The translations under genes and the position numbers were made by a program. From assembly GCA_964551605.1 (NCBI GenBank), contig CAZKCV010000003.1, forward strand, positions 15,474-79,473: a stretch of 64,000 nt of DNA, written 5' to 3'. Origin of the DNA: an uncultured Gammaproteobacteria bacterium (GTDB lineage: Bacteria > Patescibacteriota > Microgenomatia > Daviesbacterales > UBA10151). The notes under the pieces were generated by a model, which saw only the letters and a list, made by a program, of their open reading frames with translations, was not told where the DNA came from and made no database searches. Each line of letters begins with the position of its first letter. Position 1 is the first letter of the stretch. Of this stretch, positions 40,915 to 50,634 are shown piece after piece.

Positions 40915-41655
40915 ATGAACACTACACAACAACATCTGGCTGTTAGGGATATTCACGGTGACATTCTGATTCTCAAAGACGGCGGAGGCGCCCTGGTGCT
41001 GCAGGTTTCAGCTGTTAATTTTGGCTTGCTTTCCGAACGTGAACAGATGGCCATTATCCAAAGTTTTGCCCAAATGCTTAATTCGTTATCTTTTAGCCTG
41101 CAGATTGTCATTCATTCCGAAAGGCTTAACTTAAGCTCTTATCTGACGCTTTTGGAAAAAGCCCAAAAAGCTCAGACTAATCCGCTGCTGTCGCAAATGA
41201 TTACCGACTATAAACAATTCATACAAAGTGTAGTTAAAGACATGGAAGTACTGGATAAAAAATTTTATATTATCATTCCTCTGTTTAGCATAGAACTAGG
41301 TCTAACTGCCTCCAAAGCTAATTTAGAACAAAAAATTAAAACCGTACTCACGCCCAGAAAAGATCAGGTCATCAGACAACTGCAGCGGGTAGGACTGCAG
41401 GCTGTTCAATTAGACAAAGCAAAATTAATTGAGGTTTTCTATGATATCTATAACGGAGAACAAATCCAGCCGGCTGAATCAGTTCAACTACAGGACCTGG
41501 CAGTCAGGCTCAAAAATCCGCAACCCAGTCAAGCCGGTCCGCAAGCCAATATACCGCCACCTATCCAACAACCCACTCCTCAACCAGTTCAGGCACCAAC
41601 TGCCACCCAAACAGCAAGAAACCATCCTTTTATTGTAGAGGAGCTGGAAGCATGA
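40915..41655 (+). CDS. VirB4/TrbE N-terminal domain protein (split from the ATPase domain)
   Basis: 246 aa. LAVRDIHGDILILKDGGGALVLQVSAVNFGLLSEREQMAIIQSFAQMLNSL matches the VirB4/TrbE N-terminal pattern. Ends in a Pro/Gln-rich tail and overlaps the next ORF by 4 nt (ATGA). Confidence 0.5.
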   Translation: MNTTQQHLAVRDIHGDILILKDGGGALVLQVSAVNFGLLSEREQMAIIQSFAQMLNSLSFSLQIVIHSERLNLSSYLTLLEKAQKAQTNPLLSQMITDYKQFIQSVVKDMEVLDKKFYIIIPLFSIELGLTASKANLEQKIKTVLTPRKDQVIRQLQRVGLQAVQLDKAKLIEVFYDIYNGEQIQPAESVQLQDLAVRLKNPQPSQAGPQANIPPPIQQPTPQPVQAPTATQTARNHPFIVEELEA

Positions 41656-43409
41656 AACTACCAAGTTTACTTAAAAAAACAAAGCAAACTGATCCGGCGA
41701 TTCCTCAGTTAACTCTGGAGGATGTTCTGGCACCGGCTGAACTGGAAGTAGATTTTAACTACCTAAAAGTAGACGGCCGCTTTTTCAGAACCTATTTTGT
41801 GTCTAATTATCCCCGCTATGTTGATCCCAACTGGCTGGAGCCGTTAATTTCCTTTGACCATACCCTGCTCATTTCCATGTTTATTTATCCTTCCCAATCA
41901 CAAGGGGTGCTGGATGAGCTTAAACGCAAGGTAGCTGAGATGGAAGCCACCATCCAAACAGACCTGGAGCGGGGCCGGGCTATTGACCCGGCAGTAGAAG
42001 TCGCTTTAGAAGATGCCAGGGGCTTGCAGGACCAGCTGGTCAGGGGGGTAGAGCGGTTTTTCCAGTTTGGTCTCTATATTTGTGTACCGGCTGCTTCCCT
42101 GGAAGAGCTGCAAAATACTTCCAAGCTCGTGGAATCTACTTTAGCGGCTCTTTCCATTACCGCCAAACAGGTCATCTTGCAAATGGAGGACGGGTTTAAG
42201 TCCTGCCTGCCCCAGGGTCAGGATTTATTAAACCTAAACCATAATATGGACACCACCTCCCTGGCTACTACTTTTCCCTTTGCCTCATCAGAATTGACTG
42301 CCAACGAAGGTATTATGTACGGAATTAATGAGCATAACGGCTCGCTGATTTTATTTGACAGGTTTAGTTTGGAAAACTTTAATTCAGTTATTTTTGCCAA
42401 AGCCGGGGCCGGCAAATCATACTTTGTAAAACTGGAGGCCTTAAGATCATTAATGTTCGGAGCGGAAATTATCGTCATTGATCCTGAACAGGAATACCTA
42501 CCCCTCTGCCAGGCAGTCGGAGGTGAATATATTAACTTTTCCGCCTCATCACCGGTAAAAATCAATCCCTTTGACATGTCAGGCGAACTGGTACCCGGGG
42601 AAAATGAGCTGGGCCGAAAAATCTTATCTTTAACCAGCTTCTTAAGGATTGTTTTAGGCAACTTAAACGCCCAGGAAACAGCGGTTTTAGACCGGGCCCT
42701 AAAACAAACCTATCAATTAAAAGGCATTACTGATAATCCGGAAACCCAAAATAAAATCCCGCCCTTAATGGAGGATTTATATAAAGTCTTAATCGGGATG
42801 GAAGAAGGCCCGACCATGGAGCTGGCTGCCAGATTAGAGCGCTTCATTAAAGGCTCATTGACCGGTATTTTTTCTGCCCACTCCAATATTGACCTTAAAA
42901 ATTCCTTTACTGTCTTTTCTGTCCGGGATTTGCCGGATCAGCTGCGGCCCTTAGCCATCCATATGATTTTGGAATATGTCTGGACCAAAATCAGGGGGAA
43001 GCTTAAAAAAAGATTATTAATCGTAGATGAAGCCTGGTATTTAATGAGAAACCAGGATTCGGCTGACTTTTTAGTGGATATGGCCAAAAGGGCCAGGAAA
43101 TATTATCTGGGGCTAACTACTATTACTCAGGATGTCGAGGATTTTCTGGCCACTGAGCGGGGCAAGGAAATTATCTCCAACTCCTCCATCCAGGTACTCT
43201 TAAAACAAGCTCCGGCTTCTATTGACCTTTTGGCGGAAGTTTTTAATTTATCAGAAGGGGAACAAAGGCTGCTCATGTCAGAAGGAGTAGGTGAAGGAAT
43301 ATTCTTTGCCGGTAATACCCATGTCGCTATGAGGGTGGTGGCCTCCTCCAACGAGCATGAATTAATTACCACCAGCCCCCAGGAGATCCTGGCCAGACAA
43401 GAAGAATAA
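41652..43409 (+). CDS. VirB4/TrbE-family T4SS ATPase (central and C-terminal ATPase domains)
   Basis: 585 aa. Walker A FAKAGAGKSYFVK, Walker B RLLIVDEAWYLM, and a VirB4-like mid region (RTYFVSNYPRYVDPNWLEPLI). Confidence 0.8.
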   Translation: MKLPSLLKKTKQTDPAIPQLTLEDVLAPAELEVDFNYLKVDGRFFRTYFVSNYPRYVDPNWLEPLISFDHTLLISMFIYPSQSQGVLDELKRKVAEMEATIQTDLERGRAIDPAVEVALEDARGLQDQLVRGVERFFQFGLYICVPAASLEELQNTSKLVESTLAALSITAKQVILQMEDGFKSCLPQGQDLLNLNHNMDTTSLATTFPFASSELTANEGIMYGINEHNGSLILFDRFSLENFNSVIFAKAGAGKSYFVKLEALRSLMFGAEIIVIDPEQEYLPLCQAVGGEYINFSASSPVKINPFDMSGELVPGENELGRKILSLTSFLRIVLGNLNAQETAVLDRALKQTYQLKGITDNPETQNKIPPLMEDLYKVLIGMEEGPTMELAARLERFIKGSLTGIFSAHSNIDLKNSFTVFSVRDLPDQLRPLAIHMILEYVWTKIRGKLKKRLLIVDEAWYLMRNQDSADFLVDMAKRARKYYLGLTTITQDVEDFLATERGKEIISNSSIQVLLKQAPASIDLLAEVFNLSEGEQRLLMSEGVGEGIFFAGNTHVAMRVVASSNEHELITTSPQEILARQEE

Positions 43410-43424
43410 TGATAATCTAAACTT

Positions 43425-45299
43425 ATGGCTATCTTAAATCCTTTAGAACTTACCCGGCTTAAGTCACTGCTTTCAGGAAAAGTGCTTACAACAGAAGAGC
43501 AAATCAACACCTTGGACCTGCTGCGATCCAGGTTTTCTAATTTCTTTTCCAGTCTGGAACCTAATCTAACAGAAGAAAAGCTCAAGGATAATAAATTTCT
43601 TATCAAATACTTATCAAATCCCTATAACAGAAATAAAATCAAAAATGCCCTTCGCAGCGAACTATCCCTGCCTGCAGACCAACAAATCGCCCTGGAACAA
43701 GCGCTCAGCGAAAAGCCTGTTGCAGCAGAAGAAGCCGGTGGACAGTCAACTAACCAAGAAGCAACACCAGCAACCGGTCAAGAAACACAACCAGCAGGAG
43801 CAGCCGGCAGTTCTGCCGTGAACATGCCTTTTGGCGGCATGTCATCCGTTCCCTCTTTCTCTTCCTCCCCGCGTGTTTTTGCAACTCAACAAACCCCGCC
43901 GGTCGGCGGGATGGAAGGCGGCACTGGCCAAGGCACAGCTGCCACCAATAAAGCAGGCCGGAGTTTTAACTTTTCGTCTTTTAGATCTAAGGTGGGATCA
44001 AAAATAACTGGAGCTGCCAGAACCGGACTGGAGAAAGCTAACCCATTTCTAAAACAGATGGGTACCGGAGGAATCAACGCCCTCTCTGGTATGGCTAATT
44101 TCGGCGGGGGACAGGGAGGTATTTTCTCATCATTGGGAAGATTCGGTAAAGGCGGCGGACGAGACAGCTCTTTAGTCAGTAAAGCTAAAGGCAGAGGGGG
44201 ATTGATTTTTGCAGGAGCTTTAATAGGCGCTATGTTTCTGGTAGGAGCAATGGCAGCTTTCGCCCCAAACCCCACCCCTGGCCAGACTGCACCTATAAGT
44301 AATACTTCCGGCCTGGATTATACCCTCCCTTTGAAAAGCACATCTGTTCAACCTTTGGATATTAAAAATCAAGTTACAGCAGCTTTCCCGGGAGCCAAAC
44401 TGGAATATTGGGATAAAATCGTCCAAAGCAGTATAGCTGCCGGATTTAATCCAGCTTTAGCGCTAGCCTTGTGGATTGAGGAGACAGGCGCTTCACACAC
44501 CACGCTTGCCAGAAATGGCGGCAGCGAAATTCCCGTTAACGGAAACTTAACCAAAGGCCATCTGGGCTGTGCGCCAACACAGGACCAGGCCATAGACGAA
44601 AGCTTAAGTTGTTTATTTAAATTTATGGCCACATATAACTTTACCAATGACCAGTTCGCGGATTTTATGGCCAAATATTCCGGAGGACCAACCAACGCTC
44701 CGTTTTCTAACAATCCAAATTTCCCCAAAAATCTTAAGGAGTGGTATTCAAAATTGGTACCTTCCGGAGCCGGAGCCATCGTGGCAGTCACCCCCAGTCC
44801 AATGCCTCAGCAAGCTATAGCTTCTTGCCCTGTAGCCGAAGGACGCATTAGCACGCCTTCTTATAATGCCAGCCCCAATACAGGACACTGTGGAGGTAGT
44901 TATGCTTCTTCTTGTCATTGCGGAACAACAGGCAGAAGAGCCAAAGCTATTGATGTCCCCACCAACGGCCAAAGTGTGGTTCTACCAACCGTCAACGGTC
45001 AATCGGTCAACTGGAAACTCATCGAGGGACCTTACCAAGTAGAGATTGGCGAGGGCGGCGGACAAGGCTATACTTTCCAAGCCAATCAGGGAAACGATAC
45101 CTGGTATCTGGATATGTTGCACTTAAACACATCTTCTCTAGCGCGGAACACAGAGTACCCTTCCGGGACGCCTGTAGCAAAAAGCGCGATTACACACGTA
45201 CATATGACCATAGGCAGAAACTTAAGCAGCCGGCCGATAGCCGGAACTGCAACGGATTGCGACCCCAACTGGCTGCCATCAGACTTTTTATGTCAATGA
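43425..45299 (+). CDS. T4SS-associated putative cell-wall hydrolase (Gly-rich linker, TM segment, C-terminal degenerate M23/LytM-like domain)
   Basis: 624 aa with a TM helix LIFAGALIGAMFLVGAMAAF. C-terminal motifs HCGGSYASSCHC...AIDV...GNDTWYLDMLHLN resemble the HxxxD / HxH of M23 peptidases (inference). Confidence 0.4.
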   Translation: MAILNPLELTRLKSLLSGKVLTTEEQINTLDLLRSRFSNFFSSLEPNLTEEKLKDNKFLIKYLSNPYNRNKIKNALRSELSLPADQQIALEQALSEKPVAAEEAGGQSTNQEATPATGQETQPAGAAGSSAVNMPFGGMSSVPSFSSSPRVFATQQTPPVGGMEGGTGQGTAATNKAGRSFNFSSFRSKVGSKITGAARTGLEKANPFLKQMGTGGINALSGMANFGGGQGGIFSSLGRFGKGGGRDSSLVSKAKGRGGLIFAGALIGAMFLVGAMAAFAPNPTPGQTAPISNTSGLDYTLPLKSTSVQPLDIKNQVTAAFPGAKLEYWDKIVQSSIAAGFNPALALALWIEETGASHTTLARNGGSEIPVNGNLTKGHLGCAPTQDQAIDESLSCLFKFMATYNFTNDQFADFMAKYSGGPTNAPFSNNPNFPKNLKEWYSKLVPSGAGAIVAVTPSPMPQQAIASCPVAEGRISTPSYNASPNTGHCGGSYASSCHCGTTGRRAKAIDVPTNGQSVVLPTVNGQSVNWKLIEGPYQVEIGEGGGQGYTFQANQGNDTWYLDMLHLNTSSLARNTEYPSGTPVAKSAITHVHMTIGRNLSSRPIAGTATDCDPNWLPSDFLCQ

Positions 45300-45742
45300 A
45301 AAATATTAAAATCATAATATTTATAATAGTTATGCTAAGTATTATGGCTTTTATTCTGAAAAGCCGTATTACTATCTTACCTTCCCCCTCCCAGTCACCC
45401 TCACCACAAACAGTATCCTCATCCGACAAGCCCACAATAATTTCTACCAAACCTAATCCTTTGGATGAAAGTATTATTACAGCCACGGAAATAGTAGAAA
45501 TTACTTTTAACCGGACCATTGAGAATGTGGGGGAATTTAAGGTCAAAATTGAGCCGGAAATAGAATACAGGATGGAGCTTTCCGGGGACAGAAAAACCGC
45601 TAAAATTATCCCCCTTAAACCTTACCAGCTAGGCACAACTTATACCTTGTTTATCGGCACTGAAACTAAATTTGACGGCGTGGGCAGATGGGGAGAAGAA
45701 AAGGTTTTCCATTTTAGAACCATTAAGTATACGGGTGTATAA
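45257..45742 (+). CDS. secreted/anchored hypothetical protein with Ig-like (SbsA/Big-type) domain
   Basis: 161 aa with an N-terminal hydrophobic helix and a Ser/Pro linker. ATEIVEITFNRTIENVGEFKVKIEPEIEY...KIIPLKPYQLGTTYTLFIG resembles a bacterial Ig-like domain. Confidence 0.4.
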   Translation: MRPQLAAIRLFMSMKNIKIIIFIIVMLSIMAFILKSRITILPSPSQSPSPQTVSSSDKPTIISTKPNPLDESIITATEIVEITFNRTIENVGEFKVKIEPEIEYRMELSGDRKTAKIIPLKPYQLGTTYTLFIGTETKFDGVGRWGEEKVFHFRTIKYTGV

Positions 45743-45824: not shown

Positions 45825-46925
45825 CTAGTTAAGTCTCACCGGCATTACAATATATTCCAATCCTTCAACACCCATTGGCTTAATCAAAGCCGCTGACAGA
45901 GCTCCGGAAAATTCAATCATAATCTGGGTCGCAGGAGCGTTAGAGATAGCATCCAATAAAAACTTGGTATTAAAGGCGATTTTTAACTCTTCTCCTTCAA
46001 TTTCTCCTTCTATTTCATTTTCCTGGCTGCCCAGTTCCTTAGCCTGTGATTCCAGCTTTAATATGCCTTTTTTAGTGGTTAAAACTACTACATTAGCTTC
46101 ATTTTTGGCAAAAATAGCTGCCAGTTTACTGGCTTTTAATAATTCCTCTTTCCCAATCATTGCCCTGGCCACAATCTTTTCCGGGATTATCTTTTCCCAA
46201 GCCGGGAATTGGCCTTCAATTAATCGGGAAGAAACAATCGTATTTCCCAGCTTAAATACTACCTGATTTTGGTTCTGACTGGTGGCAATACCAACCTCTT
46301 CAACTTCTTCTTCAGCTATAATCCGCAGTAATTCCTCAAACGTTCTCCGGGGAATTAAACTCCTAAACTGATCTTTGCCTTTAGGTAATTCAAACCGGCG
46401 GTGGGCTAGCCTAAATCCATCTGTGGCTACAAAATCCAACTTGCCATTAGACACTTCAGTCAATATACCGGTCAAAATCGGCCTGCCCTCATCCACCGCC
46501 GAGGCAAACAGAATTTGCGATGAGATTAAAAAGGCTTCCTTAGGAAAACTGATGCCAGTACCTTCAGCCAAAGGGATAGCCGGAAATTCAGCAGCGGCAA
46601 TCCCGTTAATACTGGCCTTTAGTTTACCGGACTGCACAGTTAAAACTTCATCTTCTGATGTCAAAATCACCTTAGCTTGTCCTAAACCGGAAATAAGCTC
46701 TACTAAAGTCTTGGCAGGCACAGTAACTTCTCCGGGAACTTCAATTTCCGTATTAATATACTTAATTACCCCGATTTCTAGATTTGTGGCTGCTATCTTT
46801 AATTTCTGTCCTTCAGCGGAAAGTAAAATATTATCCAGTACCGGCAAGGTGGAACGGATACCAACTGACCGGGCCACAGCTTGCAATGCAGGCAGTAAAT
46901 CTTGTTGTAAACATGTAAATTTCAT
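45825..46925 (-). CDS. dnaN: DNA polymerase III beta subunit (sliding clamp) DnaN
   Basis: 366 aa. MKFTCLQQDLLPALQAVARSVG is the classical DnaN N-terminus; three-domain length. Confidence 0.9.
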   Translation of the reverse strand: MKFTCLQQDLLPALQAVARSVGIRSTLPVLDNILLSAEGQKLKIAATNLEIGVIKYINTEIEVPGEVTVPAKTLVELISGLGQAKVILTSEDEVLTVQSGKLKASINGIAAAEFPAIPLAEGTGISFPKEAFLISSQILFASAVDEGRPILTGILTEVSNGKLDFVATDGFRLAHRRFELPKGKDQFRSLIPRRTFEELLRIIAEEEVEEVGIATSQNQNQVVFKLGNTIVSSRLIEGQFPAWEKIIPEKIVARAMIGKEELLKASKLAAIFAKNEANVVVLTTKKGILKLESQAKELGSQENEIEGEIEGEELKIAFNTKFLLDAISNAPATQIMIEFSGALSAALIKPMGVEGLEYIVMPVRLN

Positions 46926-47380
46926 TATTTCTCTCTTGAGCCGGAAACGAATCTATGAACCTCTTCTTCTGTTACTTTAATTAATCTGAAATTAACTCTT
47001 CCAGATGCAATAAGGTTTTTAATGTGTTTTTCTTCATCTGTCAAGACATGAAACTCCCCGGACTTTACTTCAATAAAATCAATCCGCTCGTTATTTTTAA
47101 TACCAATAAAATCAATCGGCCAACCTAAAGGAATAATCCGGTCATAGTCATACCGAAGTTCGGCATAAGTTAATAACTCTGCCATTTTACCCTTTTGAGG
47201 ATTGATTGACCCCTGTATAGTTTGCAGCACCCTGGCCGGTAAATCCTGTACTCCCCGGTAAAGATCAATTAGATCTGAAGGAATATCCACAGATTTTCTA
47301 GCATGCAATCTGCCGATTAAATAAGTGATTACCAATAGTAACACTAGTATTCCCAGTAATACCCAGTTAATTTTATCCAC
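46925..47380 (-). CDS. membrane-anchored PD-(D/E)xK nuclease-like (NERD/Mrr-cat-like) hypothetical protein, inserted between dnaA and dnaN
   Basis: 151 aa. N-terminal TM helix; DFIGIKNNERIDFIEVKSGEF resembles the D...E-x-K core of restriction-endonuclease-fold proteins (inference). Confidence 0.4.
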   Translation of the reverse strand: MDKINWVLLGILVLLLVITYLIGRLHARKSVDIPSDLIDLYRGVQDLPARVLQTIQGSINPQKGKMAELLTYAELRYDYDRIIPLGWPIDFIGIKNNERIDFIEVKSGEFHVLTDEEKHIKNLIASGRVNFRLIKVTEEEVHRFVSGSREK

Positions 47381-47384
47381 AAGT

Positions 47385-47550
47385 CGTTCGATTATACTAC
47401 ATCATATTAATAATAATAGTAATAGTAATATGTGGTGTGGATATGTGTAAAAACCAATTTTTCCGTTCACTTTTGGGAGAATTTCGTGTGAGTAAATTCC
47501 TGATATTTGTGGAAAAGTAGGTGGATAACTGACTTTACCCGGTGGATAAT
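47385..47550. promoter_or_regulatory. candidate oriC segment: AT-rich unwinding-like stretch plus DnaA-box-like 9-mers downstream of dnaA
   Basis: attaataataatagtaatagtaatat (47405-47430). tgtggatat at 47436-47444. ggtggataac at 47520-47529. ggtggataat at 47541-47550, which lies inside the dnaA 3' end. Confidence 0.45.
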
Positions 47551-48860
47551 TGTTGCCTTACTTCAATAGAAATCCGCTGGATTTCCCTGTCTGTTAATAT
47601 CAGTTTTTTGATTTTATCCCGGCCGTGCATAACTGTAGTGTGATCTCTGCCGCCTAACAGTTCTCCGATTTTTTCCACAGTCATGTTTAACTGGTCGGAT
47701 AAAATGTGCATAACTAAATGTCTTGGCAAAACTAACTCTTTGACTCTTTTAGGCCCGGTTAAGTCAGTATGCTTGACCTTAAAGTAGTCACAAACTACAT
47801 TAATCACCTGCTTGGGGGAAAGAGCTTTCAATTCACTTTCGCTTCGTCCTCCCAGCAAAGATCGGACATTTTCCACAGTTGGCTCCATGCCCTTGGTTTT
47901 TAAAGATTGCAGTACCTGGATTAATTTTCCCTCCAGGTCCCTGGCGTTTGTTTCAACTGAAGCTGCCACTAAATTTAAACAATTTTCTTCCAGGAGAAAA
48001 TTTTGTTCCTTGCATTTATTTTTTAATATGGCTACCCGGGTGTCAAAATCCGGAGCTTGGATGTCGACCATTAGCCCGCCCTGGAAGCGGCTTTTTAAGC
48101 GGTCTTCCAGTTTGGCGATTTCATAAGGGGGCCGGTCCGAGGTGATGACAATCTGGGAATTCCTGGCGGATAATTCATTAAAGGTGTGGAAAAACTCTTC
48201 CTGGGTGCCTTCCCGGCCGGAGAAAAACTGGATGTCATCAATCAGCAAAATATTAACGCCCCGGTAGCGGTTCCTAAATCTGCCAAACTGCTTGGTCTGT
48301 AGCGCTTCCACATAGTCGTTGGTAAATTTTTCAGAAGAGCAATAATTGACTTTGAAGTGAGGATGCTTTTTAAGTATGGCATTGCCAATGCCTAACATCA
48401 GGTGAGTTTTTCCTACGCCGGTTCCCCCGTAGACAAAAAGCGGATTGTAGGATGTGCCGGGATTTTGGGCTACAGCTTGGGCAGCCGCAAAAGCTACGTT
48501 ATTGGTGGGTCCCACCACAAAATTTTCCAGGGTATATTTCGGGTTAAGGTCAGAGGTGACAGCAGTTTGAACAGGCTGGAAGAAATCCTGCTCCTCAGCC
48601 GGAGGTGCTGTTTCATGTTCCTTGATGATGAATGTAACTTGTACCTTATTGCCCAGCAGGTTTTCAAAAGCCTGTTCAATCAAGGCCTTAAATTTTTGAT
48701 CCAGGTTTTCTTTAATGAAGGCTGAAGGAGCAGATAAAACAATCAGCCCCCCATTAGCTGATTTTAAAAGGGTTTTCAAAAAGTAGGCTTTAAAGTTGTC
48801 AGGCCCGACTTGGGGTTTAATGGTTTGCAAAAATTTATGCCAGAGGCGGAGATTGTCCAT
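47535..48860 (-). CDS. dnaA: chromosomal replication initiator DnaA
   Basis: 441 aa. AAA+ Walker A GGTGVGKTHLM, box VII, and a C-terminal DNA-binding domain (VVCDYFKVKHTDLTGPKR...RHLVMHILSD). Confidence 0.9.
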   Translation of the reverse strand: MDNLRLWHKFLQTIKPQVGPDNFKAYFLKTLLKSANGGLIVLSAPSAFIKENLDQKFKALIEQAFENLLGNKVQVTFIIKEHETAPPAEEQDFFQPVQTAVTSDLNPKYTLENFVVGPTNNVAFAAAQAVAQNPGTSYNPLFVYGGTGVGKTHLMLGIGNAILKKHPHFKVNYCSSEKFTNDYVEALQTKQFGRFRNRYRGVNILLIDDIQFFSGREGTQEEFFHTFNELSARNSQIVITSDRPPYEIAKLEDRLKSRFQGGLMVDIQAPDFDTRVAILKNKCKEQNFLLEENCLNLVAASVETNARDLEGKLIQVLQSLKTKGMEPTVENVRSLLGGRSESELKALSPKQVINVVCDYFKVKHTDLTGPKRVKELVLPRHLVMHILSDQLNMTVEKIGELLGGRDHTTVMHGRDKIKKLILTDREIQRISIEVRQQLSTG

Positions 48861-48861
48861 G

Positions 48862-48890
48862 TTGATAAGTTATCCACAATTTATTCTACC
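48862..48890. promoter_or_regulatory. perfect DnaA box TTATCCACA immediately upstream of the dnaA start (dnaA promoter/oriC-proximal box)
   Basis: ttatccaca at 48870-48878, 10 nt upstream of the dnaA start codon at 48860. Confidence 0.5.
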
Positions 48891-48946
48891 AGGCTTTGAT
48901 TGGCAATATAGAGAAACTATTAAAAACTAGATCATTTTTGGAGTTA

Positions 48947-49291
48947 TTAGATCAGCTCTAAGCCTGCTACTGAATAGACGGTAGTAAAATACCGCTTTCT
49001 CTTTTTCAGGCGGTTGATAGATTCAATGGCTTTATCCATATGAACAAGGATATCATTGGGTTCTGTGTAAGGAAAATCAAAAACCACTACGTTAAATAGT
49101 CTCCCGCCTTCTTTTTTAAGAAAATCTTTATCAAAGGTGAATATAATGCGGTTTTCCTGAACAGCCAGTTTTTTGATACTTAAATCGGAAATTGTTTTGG
49201 CTGATCGTTGGATTCGCTTGACATCATGATGTTTCTTTTGGAGATAAGAAATGAGTGTTGGAGGAAAATTTTCGTCAGCGAGTAATTTCAT
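48947..49291 (-). CDS. DUF5615-type PIN-like domain protein (putative toxin)
   Basis: MKLLADENFPP...IFTFDKDF matches the DUF5615/PIN-like pattern (D-E-N acidic cluster). The internal start at 49291 is preferred. Confidence 0.55.
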   Translation of the reverse strand: MKLLADENFPPTLISYLQKKHHDVKRIQRSAKTISDLSIKKLAVQENRIIFTFDKDFLKKEGGRLFNVVVFDFPYTEPNDILVHMDKAIESINRLKKRKRYFTTVYSVAGLELI

Positions 49292-49541
49292 GCAAGGTAG
49301 TTGCGAAGGCCTCGTTATTTTTGATCCTACGGGGGTTTGTCTTGGCAACTAAGCGGGTTGCATATTCTATGGCGGCAATGACTTCAGATTTTTTAAGCTC
49401 GGGGTATTCCGCAGTAATTTCTTTGACACTCATGTCGGCTCCCAGAAAATTCATAATAAGCTCCACAGAAATCCTTGTCCCCGCTATAATTGGTTTCCCG
49501 CCCAGGATCTTTGGATTTGAAACAATTATTGCTTTTGCCAT
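49275..49541 (-). CDS. DUF433 domain protein (putative antitoxin partner of DUF5615)
   Basis: 88 aa. IVSNPKILGGKPIIAGTRISVELIMNFLGADMSVKEITAEYPELKKSEVIAAIEYA is the DUF433 signature. It overlaps the downstream PIN-like gene by ~17 nt. Confidence 0.6.
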   Translation of the reverse strand: MAKAIIVSNPKILGGKPIIAGTRISVELIMNFLGADMSVKEITAEYPELKKSEVIAAIEYATRLVAKTNPRRIKNNEAFATTLHEITR

Positions 49542-49578
49542 ACCCGTATTATACTACAAGAGGGAAGAATCTTTTGAC

Positions 49579-50424
49579 TTAATTTCTAAGCCAATTAATG
49601 CCTAATGTATAAAGGATATTGGCTGAACGCCAAGATCTGTCAAGTTGGGGCGGCGTGTTAACAGGATCGTCTATAGTTTCTGGGTGGAATAATCTGGAAG
49701 CTATTTCTTCCGGGTTAATACTTGAGGGTGCTACAAGTTTATCAGCCGGTTGTTGACGGGAGAATTTTTCTACGGTTACCCATTGCGGATCAAATGAAAG
49801 GAGGTAGCTATAATGGCGGTTTATTCTAATACGGACAGCACCTTTTTCTTTCAGAGTTGCCAGGCTACCAGCCATTTGTAAAAGGTTTGGCCATCCTTCA
49901 AAGCGCCCGGCTGGAGTGCGATCGTTAGCCAGAGGGTCGACTTCTTTCAAAGAACCAGTGCCGTCATATCGCAGAGCTAGATGATGCCCGTAGATTGATG
50001 CACCCAAGCATGTTGGACTATGTTGTTCTCGGTAGCGTTGCCAAAACGCAAGATGGATCATGTCCCGGCTCCTGGGGTTTAGACGAGTATCTTTAGGTGG
50101 TTCGCCCCAGAGGGTAAGTTCTACGGGATGGCATTGGCCTCGGGAGATTATAAATTGGGCTTCGGCCAGCTCTCTGAACTCAGGAGATTTATTATTGGGA
50201 ACGAGTCCAAAATAGGTTCTGGTAACAGTAATTGCAGGAATGGGTTTTGGCCAAACATGTTTAGTTATAACCAGTAATTGTTCAGGGTCTGTCTTAGCTA
50301 CTCTTCCGAATAACTGACGGTTTCTTCTTAAGCCACTGACATGAGCCAAGAAAGCTTCTTGGGTATGCAATGGAAGTGCATCTTCCATGTAAACAGGTTG
50401 AGTTGTTGGTGACTCGATCCGCAT
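49579..50424 (-). CDS. hypothetical protein (Arg/Pro-rich, GC-richer than flanks)
   Basis: 281-aa intact ORF with no recognisable motif. Confidence 0.4.
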   Translation of the reverse strand: MRIESPTTQPVYMEDALPLHTQEAFLAHVSGLRRNRQLFGRVAKTDPEQLLVITKHVWPKPIPAITVTRTYFGLVPNNKSPEFRELAEAQFIISRGQCHPVELTLWGEPPKDTRLNPRSRDMIHLAFWQRYREQHSPTCLGASIYGHHLALRYDGTGSLKEVDPLANDRTPAGRFEGWPNLLQMAGSLATLKEKGAVRIRINRHYSYLLSFDPQWVTVEKFSRQQPADKLVAPSSINPEEIASRLFHPETIDDPVNTPPQLDRSWRSANILYTLGINWLRN

Positions 50425-50496: not shown

Positions 50497-50634
50497 ATGC
50501 CAAAGAGGACTTATCAACCAAAGAAATTAAAGAGGATCAGGAAGCACGGTTATCGGGCCCGGGCGGCCACTTCCGGCGGGCGCAGGGTTTTAAAAAGAAG
50601 AAGGGCTACGGGTAGAGCGCGCCTCACAATTTAA
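50497..50634 (+). CDS. rpmH: 50S ribosomal protein L34
   Basis: Translation [45 protein letters not shown] is the canonical L34. Absent from the ORF track because it is shorter than 60 aa. Confidence 0.85.

Follow-up and report, generated by a model that had tools for sequence, protein, structure and literature searches.

Genes and Features at the Locus

We analysed a 64,000-nucleotide stretch of contig CAZKCV010000003.1 (assembly GCA_964551605.1; hereafter the window), and within it the region around dnaA, a candidate replication origin in which a gene for a 151-residue protein of the PF10107/COG4741 nuclease family lies between dnaA and dnaN. The three genes are read from the minus strand (Table 1). 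The spacer between dnaA and the nuclease gene is 154 bp long (47381-47534). A sequence-only reading of this DNA had described an origin with DnaA boxes on both sides of dnaA, an AT-rich stretch, and a nuclease-like gene whose stop codon abuts the start of dnaN. The last point holds, with the small correction that the TAA of the nuclease gene and the ATG of dnaN overlap by one base (TAATG). The divergent rpmH-rnpA-yidC-jag cluster that it placed 1.6 kb away is also there, with rpmH starting at 50497.

A scan of one genome per species gave 80 related loci, all of them Daviesbacteria-like. In every one with enough flanking sequence the order is rnpA<-rpmH<- dnaA-> nuclease-> dnaN-> <-Big_5. Conservation of the inserted gene at this position had been suggested as a check, and the gene does stand between dnaA and dnaN in all 80 loci with enough flank. 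The earlier description of a canonical dnaA-dnaN adjacency broken by this gene is correct insofar as the gene separates the two, but the break is not an incidental one, since the order is fixed in the related loci.

Table 1. Features at and near the candidate origin, in window coordinates.
Feature	Position	Strand	Basis or remark
dnaA, 441 residues	47535..48860	-	Pfam Bac_DnaA (3.6e-66), Bac_DnaA_C, DnaA_N; NCBIfam TIGR00362, 477.8 bits (cut-off 343.9)
Nuclease gene (PF10107/COG4741), 151 residues	46925..47380	-	Pfam PF10107 Endonuc_Holl, E 2.2e-08
dnaN, 366 residues	45825..46925	-	Pfam DNA_pol3_beta domains 1-3
DnaA box TTATCCACC, 1 mismatch (plus-strand letters GGTGGATAA)	47541..47549	-	final codons of dnaA; first of a head-to-tail series pointing toward the putative unwinding site
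DnaA box TTATCCACC, 1 mismatch (plus-strand letters GGTGGATAA)	47520..47528	-	column block conserved in 56 aligned relatives
DnaA box TTTTCCACA, 1 mismatch	47508..47516	-	box scan and alignment of relatives
Weak box TTACTCACA, 2 mismatches	47487..47495	-	box scan
Conserved motif CGAAATTCTCCCAAAA after the weak box	47470..47495 (with box)	-	alignment of relatives
Tandem box pair TTTTACAC[A]TATCCACA	47436..47452	-	8-bp offset, one shared base
Spacer CCAC, proximal box to first trio	47432..47435	-	4 nt; gap compared among relatives (see text)
DnaA-trio array	47405..47431	+	3'->5' TAT AAT GAT AAT GAT AAT AAT AAT TAT
Putative AT-rich DNA unwinding element (trios and flanking AT-rich DNA)	47391..47431		87.8% AT
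Conserved TATAAT	47391..47396	-	10 nt before the nuclease GTG
Perfect box TTATCCACA	47373..47381	+	far side of the putative unwinding element, opposite orientation; overlaps the nuclease GTG (47378-47380)
Inverted box pair TGTGGATAA-c-TTATCAACA (dnaA-sense strand) at the dnaA start	48860..48878		includes perfect box 48870-48878
Conserved element of about 30 bp, GATCTAGTTTTTAATAGTTTCTCTATATTG	48904..48933	-	almost unchanged in most of 79 relatives
rpmH-rnpA-yidD-yidC-jag cluster	begins 50497		1.6 kb from dnaA and divergent from it

DnaA Boxes around dnaA

Just two perfect TTATCCACA boxes occur in the 64 kb, at 48870-48878 (+) and 47373-47381 (+), and together they flank dnaA. The number itself is weak evidence (2 observed against 0.46 expected; 7 of 100 shuffles also give 2), yet both boxes lie on either side of this one gene. 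When one mismatch was allowed, the window held 41 boxes against an expectation of 15.9 +/- 4.4, a number that none of 100 shuffles reached. Thirteen of the 41 fall in 47283-49040, about 1.8 kb around dnaA, and six are packed into 300 bp (P ~5e-5 for random placement). The clustering that the sequence-only reading had asked to see is far beyond chance, and boxes are indeed present on both sides of dnaA.

Some details of that reading needed adjustment. The perfect box upstream of dnaA is present, at a distance of 9 nt from the ATG (48858-48860) and not 10; most of this gap is taken up by TTATCAACA at 48860-48868 (-), which has one mismatch. The three box-like 9-mers reported downstream of dnaA turned out to be genuine boxes with at most one mismatch once they were placed in register (TGTGGATAT, 47436-47444; GGTGGATAA, 47520-47528 and 47541-47549). 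Overlooked were the perfect box at 47373-47381, TTTTCCACA at 47508-47516, and two boxes with 2 mismatches at 47444-47452 and 47487-47495.

Read along the minus strand, the spacer presents TTATCCACC, TTATCCACC, TTTTCCACA and TTACTCACA, then CGAAATTCTCCCAAAA, the tandem pair TTTTACAC[A]TATCCACA, CCAC, and the trios described below. In the tandem pair, the trio-proximal box ATATCCACA (47444->47436, minus strand; plus-strand letters TGTGGATAT) has one mismatch and is oriented toward the trios, and the distal box TTTTACACA at 47444-47452 (-) has two.

A Box-Trio Module in the dnaA-Nuclease Spacer

The AT-rich 26-mer previously noted downstream of dnaA is found at 47406-47431, and we could further identify it as a phased DnaA-trio array 4 nt from the tandem box pair. 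The array consists of nine consecutive trios with a central A, seven of which are 3'-(G/A)AT-5'; on the dnaA-sense strand it reads ATA TTA CTA TTA CTA TTA TTA TTA ATA, that is nine NTN triplets, after CCAC. The array begins 4 nt beyond the proximal box and 12 nt beyond the distal one. The array is unique in the window, with 7 good trios after a box where the next best site has 2, and none of 200 composition-preserving shuffles gave 7 good trios. The 41-bp element formed by the trios and their AT-rich flank ranks about seventh among the distinct AT-rich 40-mers of the 64 kb.

In Bacillus subtilis the basal unwinding system (BUS) is composed of a DnaA-box, a spacer, and DnaA-trios with the consensus 3'-GAT-5' (PMC6669920, PMC8287927). 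Its sequence criteria are a box with at most 2 mismatches to 5'-TTATCCACA-3' oriented toward the trios; a spacer of 0-16 bp between box and trios, commonly 12-13 from the distal box and about 4 nt after the proximal one; and three or more trios in succession, each with A in the middle (PMC8287927, PMC6669920). The module in the window lies within these limits in box mismatch and orientation, in spacer length, and in its run of consecutive trios.

The B. subtilis entry (Tables S1/S2 of PMC8287927) reads 3'-AATAGGTGT TTAGGTGT CCGG GATGATAATGAAGATGAT-5', with the spacer listed as 12. The likeness extends to many details. Like incC/BUS of B. subtilis, which comprises boxes 6 and 7, the trios and an AT-rich 27-mer, the module is situated between dnaA and dnaN, downstream of dnaA, with boxes pointing toward dnaN. 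Its tandem boxes are offset by 8 bp with one base in common, as are B. subtilis boxes 6 and 7 (PMC8287927, Table S1), and the gap is 4 nt in both (CCGG there, CCAC here), with a 12-nt spacer from the distal box. In both, 3'-(G/A)AT-5' trios are carried on the strand opposite the dnaA sense and are followed by AT-rich DNA. The Listeria and Oceanobacillus entries (PMC8287927, Tables S1/S2) likewise agree with the window in orientation, tandem-box offset, 4-nt gap and trios. On the other hand, the better box is the trio-proximal one here and the distal one in B. subtilis, the Daviesbacteria trios are AAT-rich, and a perfect box faces the element from the far side. The gene next to the element is the PF10107 nuclease gene here and dnaN in B. 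subtilis, and the system described here is known from sequence alone. Judged by these features, the AT-rich stretch with its tandem boxes is a putative basal unwinding system of the B. subtilis type and not just AT-rich DNA.

Conservation of the Module among Relatives

We compared 81 distinct dnaA-nuclease spacers (median length 184 bp), 56 of which were aligned for column conservation. By a strict criterion applied as a fixed-gap scan (six or more of 8 phased trios after a box with no more than 2 mismatches), at least 52 of the 81 keep the box-trio module, 49 of these 52 with a gap of exactly 4 nt. The module is usually located about 64 nt before the nuclease open reading frame (ORF). Two or three tandem boxes (TTATCCACAnnTTATCCACC) follow directly after the dnaA stop codon in the relatives. 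Next come ACACGAAA...CCAAAA, whose columns are about 90-99% conserved; ACATATCCAC(A/C), with ACATATCCAC columns 90-99% conserved; a variable 4 nt; and the conserved trio core ATA TTA ATA CTA CTA. The series is completed by AT-rich DNA, GTATAATC (columns 80-90% conserved), some 10 variable nt, and TGTGGATAA. With DnaA itself only 48-80% identical and the spacers otherwise variable, these conserved blocks read as a phylogenetic footprint.

The box on the far side of the AT-rich element is kept with at most 1 mismatch in 63 of the 81 relatives, including species in which the start codon of the nuclease gene is further downstream. Since the box is kept where it does not supply the start codon, it appears to be maintained as a DNA site. 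The ACACGAAA...CCAAAA block, also written TTAnnCACA-CGAAAttctCCcAAAA (ACACGAAATTCTCCCAAAA), stands between the dnaA-proximal boxes and the box-trio module, and is present likewise in loci L005-L084. Given as it is within the candidate origin, this motif may bind an accessory factor not yet named. Counts of conserved elements may be affected by assembly artefacts: dnaA is partial by tblastn in two loci (L045, residues 1-324; L062, residues 1-318), and in a third (L066) dnaA is directly preceded by a gap of Ns.

The Upstream Side of dnaA

Here, too, boxes have been retained. In 78 of 79 relatives at least one box is found within 160 bp upstream of dnaA, typically as TGTGGATAAnTTATCCACA adjoining the ATG. 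The inverted box pair at the dnaA start is likely a site of dnaA autoregulation and possibly a second sub-region of the origin. DnaA boxes conserved on both sides of dnaA recall the bipartite origins of B. subtilis (incA/B and incC) and Helicobacter pylori (oriC1/oriC2), but in Daviesbacteria the upstream cluster amounts to only 1-3 boxes that overlap the start of dnaA, so that autoregulation by itself would account for it.

The 30-bp element GATCTAGTTTTTAATAGTTTCTCTATATTG stays with dnaA in the window despite rpmH being 1.6 kb away, and is probably the dnaA promoter region. As a promoter it would have an unusual -35 to -10 spacing of 18-19 nt. Among relatives, rpmH and dnaA stand 87 to 2356 bp apart, in many of them only about 90-200 bp. 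Because this spacing varies so much, we regard the dnaA-rpmH side as an insertion hot spot, occupied in the window by a DUF433/DUF5615 gene pair and a 281-residue ORF.

GC Skew

Cumulative GC skew, which had been proposed as a check of the origin and which we ran on the window, has its minimum at 47,991, inside dnaA. Skew is negative over nearly all of 1-47 kb and positive over 48-63 kb. When genes were separated by strand, skew to the left of the origin was -0.004 for plus-strand genes and -0.172 for minus-strand genes; to the right, it was +0.152 and +0.048, respectively. Because genes on both strands shift, the strand-averaged component changes from about -0.09 to about +0.10. The skew switch is not merely an effect of gene orientation.

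The 151-Residue Protein

The product of the gene between dnaA and dnaN matches the PF10107 Endonuc_Holl hidden Markov model with 34.5 bits (cut-off 23.8), and all of the homologues listed carry PF10107. Across 79 orthologues, 41 positions reach a conservation of 99% or more, among them E68, D90 (in PIDF) and E104-V-K106; E68, D90 and K106 are invariant also in alignments with distant relatives. The AlphaFold2 model (predicted local distance difference test, pLDDT, 75; predicted template modelling score, pTM, 0.46) consists of an N-terminal helix (residues 2-27, pLDDT 90-96) and an alpha-beta-beta-beta-alpha-beta core (helices 62-75 and 115-125; strands 81-86, 89-95, 99-107 and 130-136). Its best Foldseek matches in the PDB are PD-(D/E)xK nucleases: SfsA, tRNA-splicing endonuclease, the Holliday junction resolvase Hjc ST1444, VRR-NUC and Cas4-like proteins. 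The sequence-only reading had called the gene at 46925..47380 a membrane-anchored, PD-(D/E)xK-like one, a description in agreement with the family match, the conserved catalytic residues, the N-terminal helix and the fold found by Foldseek.

An uncharged run of at least 15 residues occurs near the N-terminus of 79 of 80 orthologues. Lysine and arginine together number 0.10 ahead of the helix and 2.91 behind it. Since the positive charges follow the helix and do not precede it, the nuclease domain would be cytoplasmic, and we infer a membrane-anchored protein with this domain facing the cytoplasm. A cytosolic orientation has been predicted for COG4741 (PMC1189080), in agreement with the protein in the window.

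With the rest of the PF10107/COG4741 family the protein shares the E-(V/I)D-E(V/I)K motif, a minimal core of four strands and two helices, the N-terminal hydrophobic helix and the predicted cytosolic location. The Daviesbacteria clade differs in its fixed place between oriC and dnaN and in its unusually high conservation, whereas members from elsewhere are archaeal or encoded on phage-like contigs, beside unrelated genes. The PD-(D/E)xK fold predicted for the protein is also that of the Hjc/Hje resolvases (ST1444, PDB 2eo0; Foldseek match 2eo0_B, E 0.064, probability 0.97, root-mean-square deviation 3.2 over 76 columns), but the Daviesbacteria protein has a membrane anchor and lacks a significant sequence match to solved resolvases. 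It is predicted to be an active DNA-processing enzyme, most likely of a structure-specific (branched-DNA) type and less likely of a degradative, nucleotide-salvage type.

Conservation of the protein exceeds that of the initiator and the clamp. Over 74 species, median identity to the window proteins is 76.9% for the nuclease, 61.8% for DnaA and 66.2% for DnaN, and the nuclease surpasses DnaA in conservation in 69 of the 74 species and DnaN in 68 of them. Named homologues are almost entirely from Candidatus Daviesbacteria (Microgenomates / Candidate Phyla Radiation); in the complete chromosome CP066688.1 (820,589 bp) the gene is found near 371.8 kb. The closest group outside Daviesbacteria carries archaeal names (Helarchaeota, Methanophagales, Thermoplasmata, Pacearchaeota), and its genes are found among unannotated or giant ORFs. 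Three further homologues (L117, L118, L119) occur in phage-like contexts with primase-helicase, PDDEXK_1, Phage_endo_I and lysins. None of 32 distant metagenome loci has dnaA or dnaN nearby. Since the distant relatives sit in other contexts, the fixed position of the nuclease is a Daviesbacteria trait, and it probably follows horizontal acquisition. A general association of PF10107 with origins was considered and rejected, the distant relatives never adjoining dnaA or dnaN.

Searches of other collections returned nothing: NCBIfam gave no family for the nuclease, PHROGs no match for it or two relatives, and tblastn with the nuclease and a phage-context relative no match in 50,697 phage records.

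A Probable Nuclease-dnaN Transcription Unit

Over the 80 loci, a median of 4 nt separates the end of the nuclease gene from the start of dnaN, and the two genes often overlap. In most relatives a TATAAT is found 10-25 nt before the box that ends the spacer. The TATAAT at 47391-47396 is probably the -10 element of a nuclease-dnaN promoter, and nuclease and dnaN probably form one DnaA-gated operon.

Discussion

We think it very likely that this locus is oriC, the DnaA-dependent chromosomal origin of Candidatus Daviesbacteria; the box clustering and the skew minimum found in the window favour the origin reading made earlier from the sequence. The main part of oriC is the 154-bp spacer 47381-47534, extended by the boxes at 47373-47381 and 47541-47549. 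The explanation that best accounts for the whole, and in which we have considerable confidence, is an oriC with B. subtilis-type unwinding and an adjoining membrane nuclease. The origin itself is of an ordinary type in an unstudied lineage.

As architecture and conservation suggest, and as in the basal unwinding system described for B. subtilis, DnaA would fill the head-to-tail boxes, all of which point away from dnaA and the last two of which are the tandem pair at 47436-47452. From this pair ATP-DnaA would oligomerise over the fixed 4-nt gap onto the nine plus-strand trios at 47405-47431; strand opening probably starts at this array, which is also where DnaA is predicted first to bind single-stranded DNA. 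The oligomer would stretch and open the 88% AT element 47391-47431, where the helicase would then be loaded. The boxes at 48860-48878 would autoregulate dnaA and may also loop to the main cluster. Nuclease and dnaN would be transcribed from the TATAAT inside the AT-rich element, with the DnaA box on the nuclease start gating expression, so that DnaA occupancy and origin opening would both control the synthesis of the two proteins.

The position of the opening site has to be weighed against a different arrangement, in which the DNA opens upstream of dnaA, in the rpmH-dnaA spacer as at many origins, or the origin is strictly bipartite and the downstream boxes mainly regulate nuclease-dnaN. The boxes at the dnaA start, present in nearly all relatives beside the conserved 30-bp element, would fit such an arrangement, as would the bipartite origins known to flank dnaA in B. 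subtilis and H. pylori (PMC6669920; PMC3479198), and the skew minimum at 47,991 lies between both clusters and cannot separate them. The upstream boxes, however, are followed by no trio array (the best run is 3 NTN) and number only 2-3 against 6-7 downstream, and the spacer they lie in varies from 87 to 2356 bp, with whole-gene insertions, whereas the downstream module is rigidly spaced; we consider upstream opening or a strictly bipartite origin improbable. Still further from what we observe is a purely transcriptional role, with DnaA acting on dnaA and nuclease-dnaN and the true origin elsewhere. DnaA is a known transcription factor, boxes over both start regions fit repression, and only 64 kb were examined, but the skew changes sign here independently of gene strand, rpmH/rnpA-dnaA-dnaN is the classic origin neighbourhood, and simple repression would have no use for a complete box-spacer-trio-AT module. 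We give this reading very little credence.

The nuclease poses a separate question. That its ORF is spurious or a recent mobile-element insertion, as the broken canonical adjacency and the family relatives on phage-like contigs might suggest, is scarcely credible: all 80 related species loci carry the gene in this position, protein identity is 68-87%, and 41 positions are near-invariant. The place where insertions truly vary is the rpmH-dnaA spacer. We reject recent insertion on the grounds of this synteny. A frozen accident deserves more weight. An ancestor of Daviesbacteria could have taken up a PF10107 gene of archaeal or viral provenance that came to lie in front of dnaN and merely borrows the dnaN promoter, being kept for work that has nothing to do with initiation, for example the breakdown of imported or foreign DNA at the membrane to salvage nucleotides or defend the cell. 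The gene's closest non-Daviesbacteria relatives are archaeal-named and others belong to phage-like replication modules, the 32 distant loci lack dnaA and dnaN, and guarding against foreign DNA or nucleotide production has been put forward as a speculation for COG4741 (PMC1189080). What such an accident leaves unexplained is that the gene has not been lost or moved in 80 species loci, that it is conserved above DnaA and DnaN, and that the DnaA box at its start is kept even where non-coding; we treat it as a possibility of guarded standing. We favour a replication-linked DNA-processing role for the nuclease, though only tentatively. A stronger proposal makes it an essential, lineage-specific component of the Daviesbacteria replication cycle, captured from archaea or viruses, with its synthesis gated directly by DnaA through the promoter inside the putative unwinding element and the box on its start codon. 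Acting at the origin or fork, it might for instance tether origin-proximal DNA to the membrane or process it there, or it might resolve replication and recombination intermediates if a canonical resolvase is missing; its conservation above that of DnaA would then be accounted for. This proposal seems to us unlikely.

Several observations count against the oriC reading with its adjoining nuclease, or against parts of it. The skew was computed over no more than 64 kb, and the genome measures about 0.8-1.1 Mb. About one-third of the relatives, whose boxes have diverged further, fail the strict box-plus-trio criterion. Some of the trio signal is AT-rich period-3 sequence, because two of the three frames of (TAA)n-like DNA show NAN or NTN phasing. 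A sigma-70 consensus scan did not call the TATAAT at 47391-47396 and no -35 match is present there, so the promoter call derives from conservation; a leaderless or near-leaderless nuclease mRNA, which the short distance to the GTG would entail, is conjecture. As for the nuclease, the structure model is of moderate confidence only, the E-values of the Foldseek matches to nucleases are just 0.01-0.1, a profile search of PDB sequences with the protein found no nuclease or resolvase, and a literature search found no characterised PF10107 member. Because the distant relatives never stand next to dnaA or dnaN, the PF10107 family as such is not an origin factor.

Our literature searches found no description of origins from the Candidate Phyla Radiation or from Daviesbacteria. 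Bacteria of this radiation are uncultured, and the locus provides a precisely delimited candidate origin for Daviesbacteria, footprinted over some 80 species, which would extend the box-plus-trio unwinding module to another deep bacterial lineage. Its coordinates can anchor estimates of replication rate from metagenome coverage. The parts most worth experiment are the ACACGAAA motif and the conserved nuclease between the putative unwinding element and dnaN; slower-evolving here than initiator and clamp, this PF10107/COG4741 protein is a concrete candidate for study.

Other Features of the Window and of Related Loci

Outside 47200-49100, box-like 9-mers with at most 1 mismatch are strand-polarised, with 18 on the plus and 2 on the minus strand to the left, and 0 and 8, respectively, to the right. 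Among the 26 in-gene 9-mers, 18 are TGTGGATAA on the coding strand. Since most are of this kind, gene orientation and skew explain much of the polarity, and we set aside the strand flip of box-like words as a genome-wide signal.

The only match in an Rfam scan of 45.5-51 kb is a sub-threshold one to AsdA, an antisense RNA of dnaA mRNA (21.6 bits against a cut-off of 52, E 0.45), located inside dnaA at 48375-48431 (+) and most likely due to chance. We therefore see no structured RNA in the spacers.

Homologues L117, L118 and L119 are 35-45% identical, have an extra loop, and are encoded just downstream of primase-helicase and PDDEXK_1 genes. One of these contigs is labelled Pacearchaeota. None of the three homologues gave a match in PHROGs or in the deposited phage genomes searched. 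In the archaeal-named group, homologues lie beside giant ORFs (L121, 1-4921; L122, 1-3594 and 4425-9115), which encode a 3901-residue intein-containing protein and proteins of 1197 and 1815 residues lacking a Pfam match. Such surroundings suggest large archaeal mobile elements or viruses.

Three minus-strand genes lie between dnaA and rpmH in the window (48947-50424). A DUF5615 protein (48947-49348) and an overlapping DUF433 protein (49275-49541) resemble a toxin-antitoxin-type pair, and the 281-residue ORF at 49579-50424 (-) has no Pfam or NCBIfam match. On the other side, a conserved block adjoins dnaN in Daviesbacteria (window, 41652-45742; L001, 7745-12456; L003, 7557-12453). It contains a TraC/VirB4-like ATPase of 585 residues, with P-loop_TraG and DUF87 in relatives, a glycine-rich protein of 624 residues belonging to no family, and a small Big_5 protein, and looks like a type IV secretion or pilus-like module.

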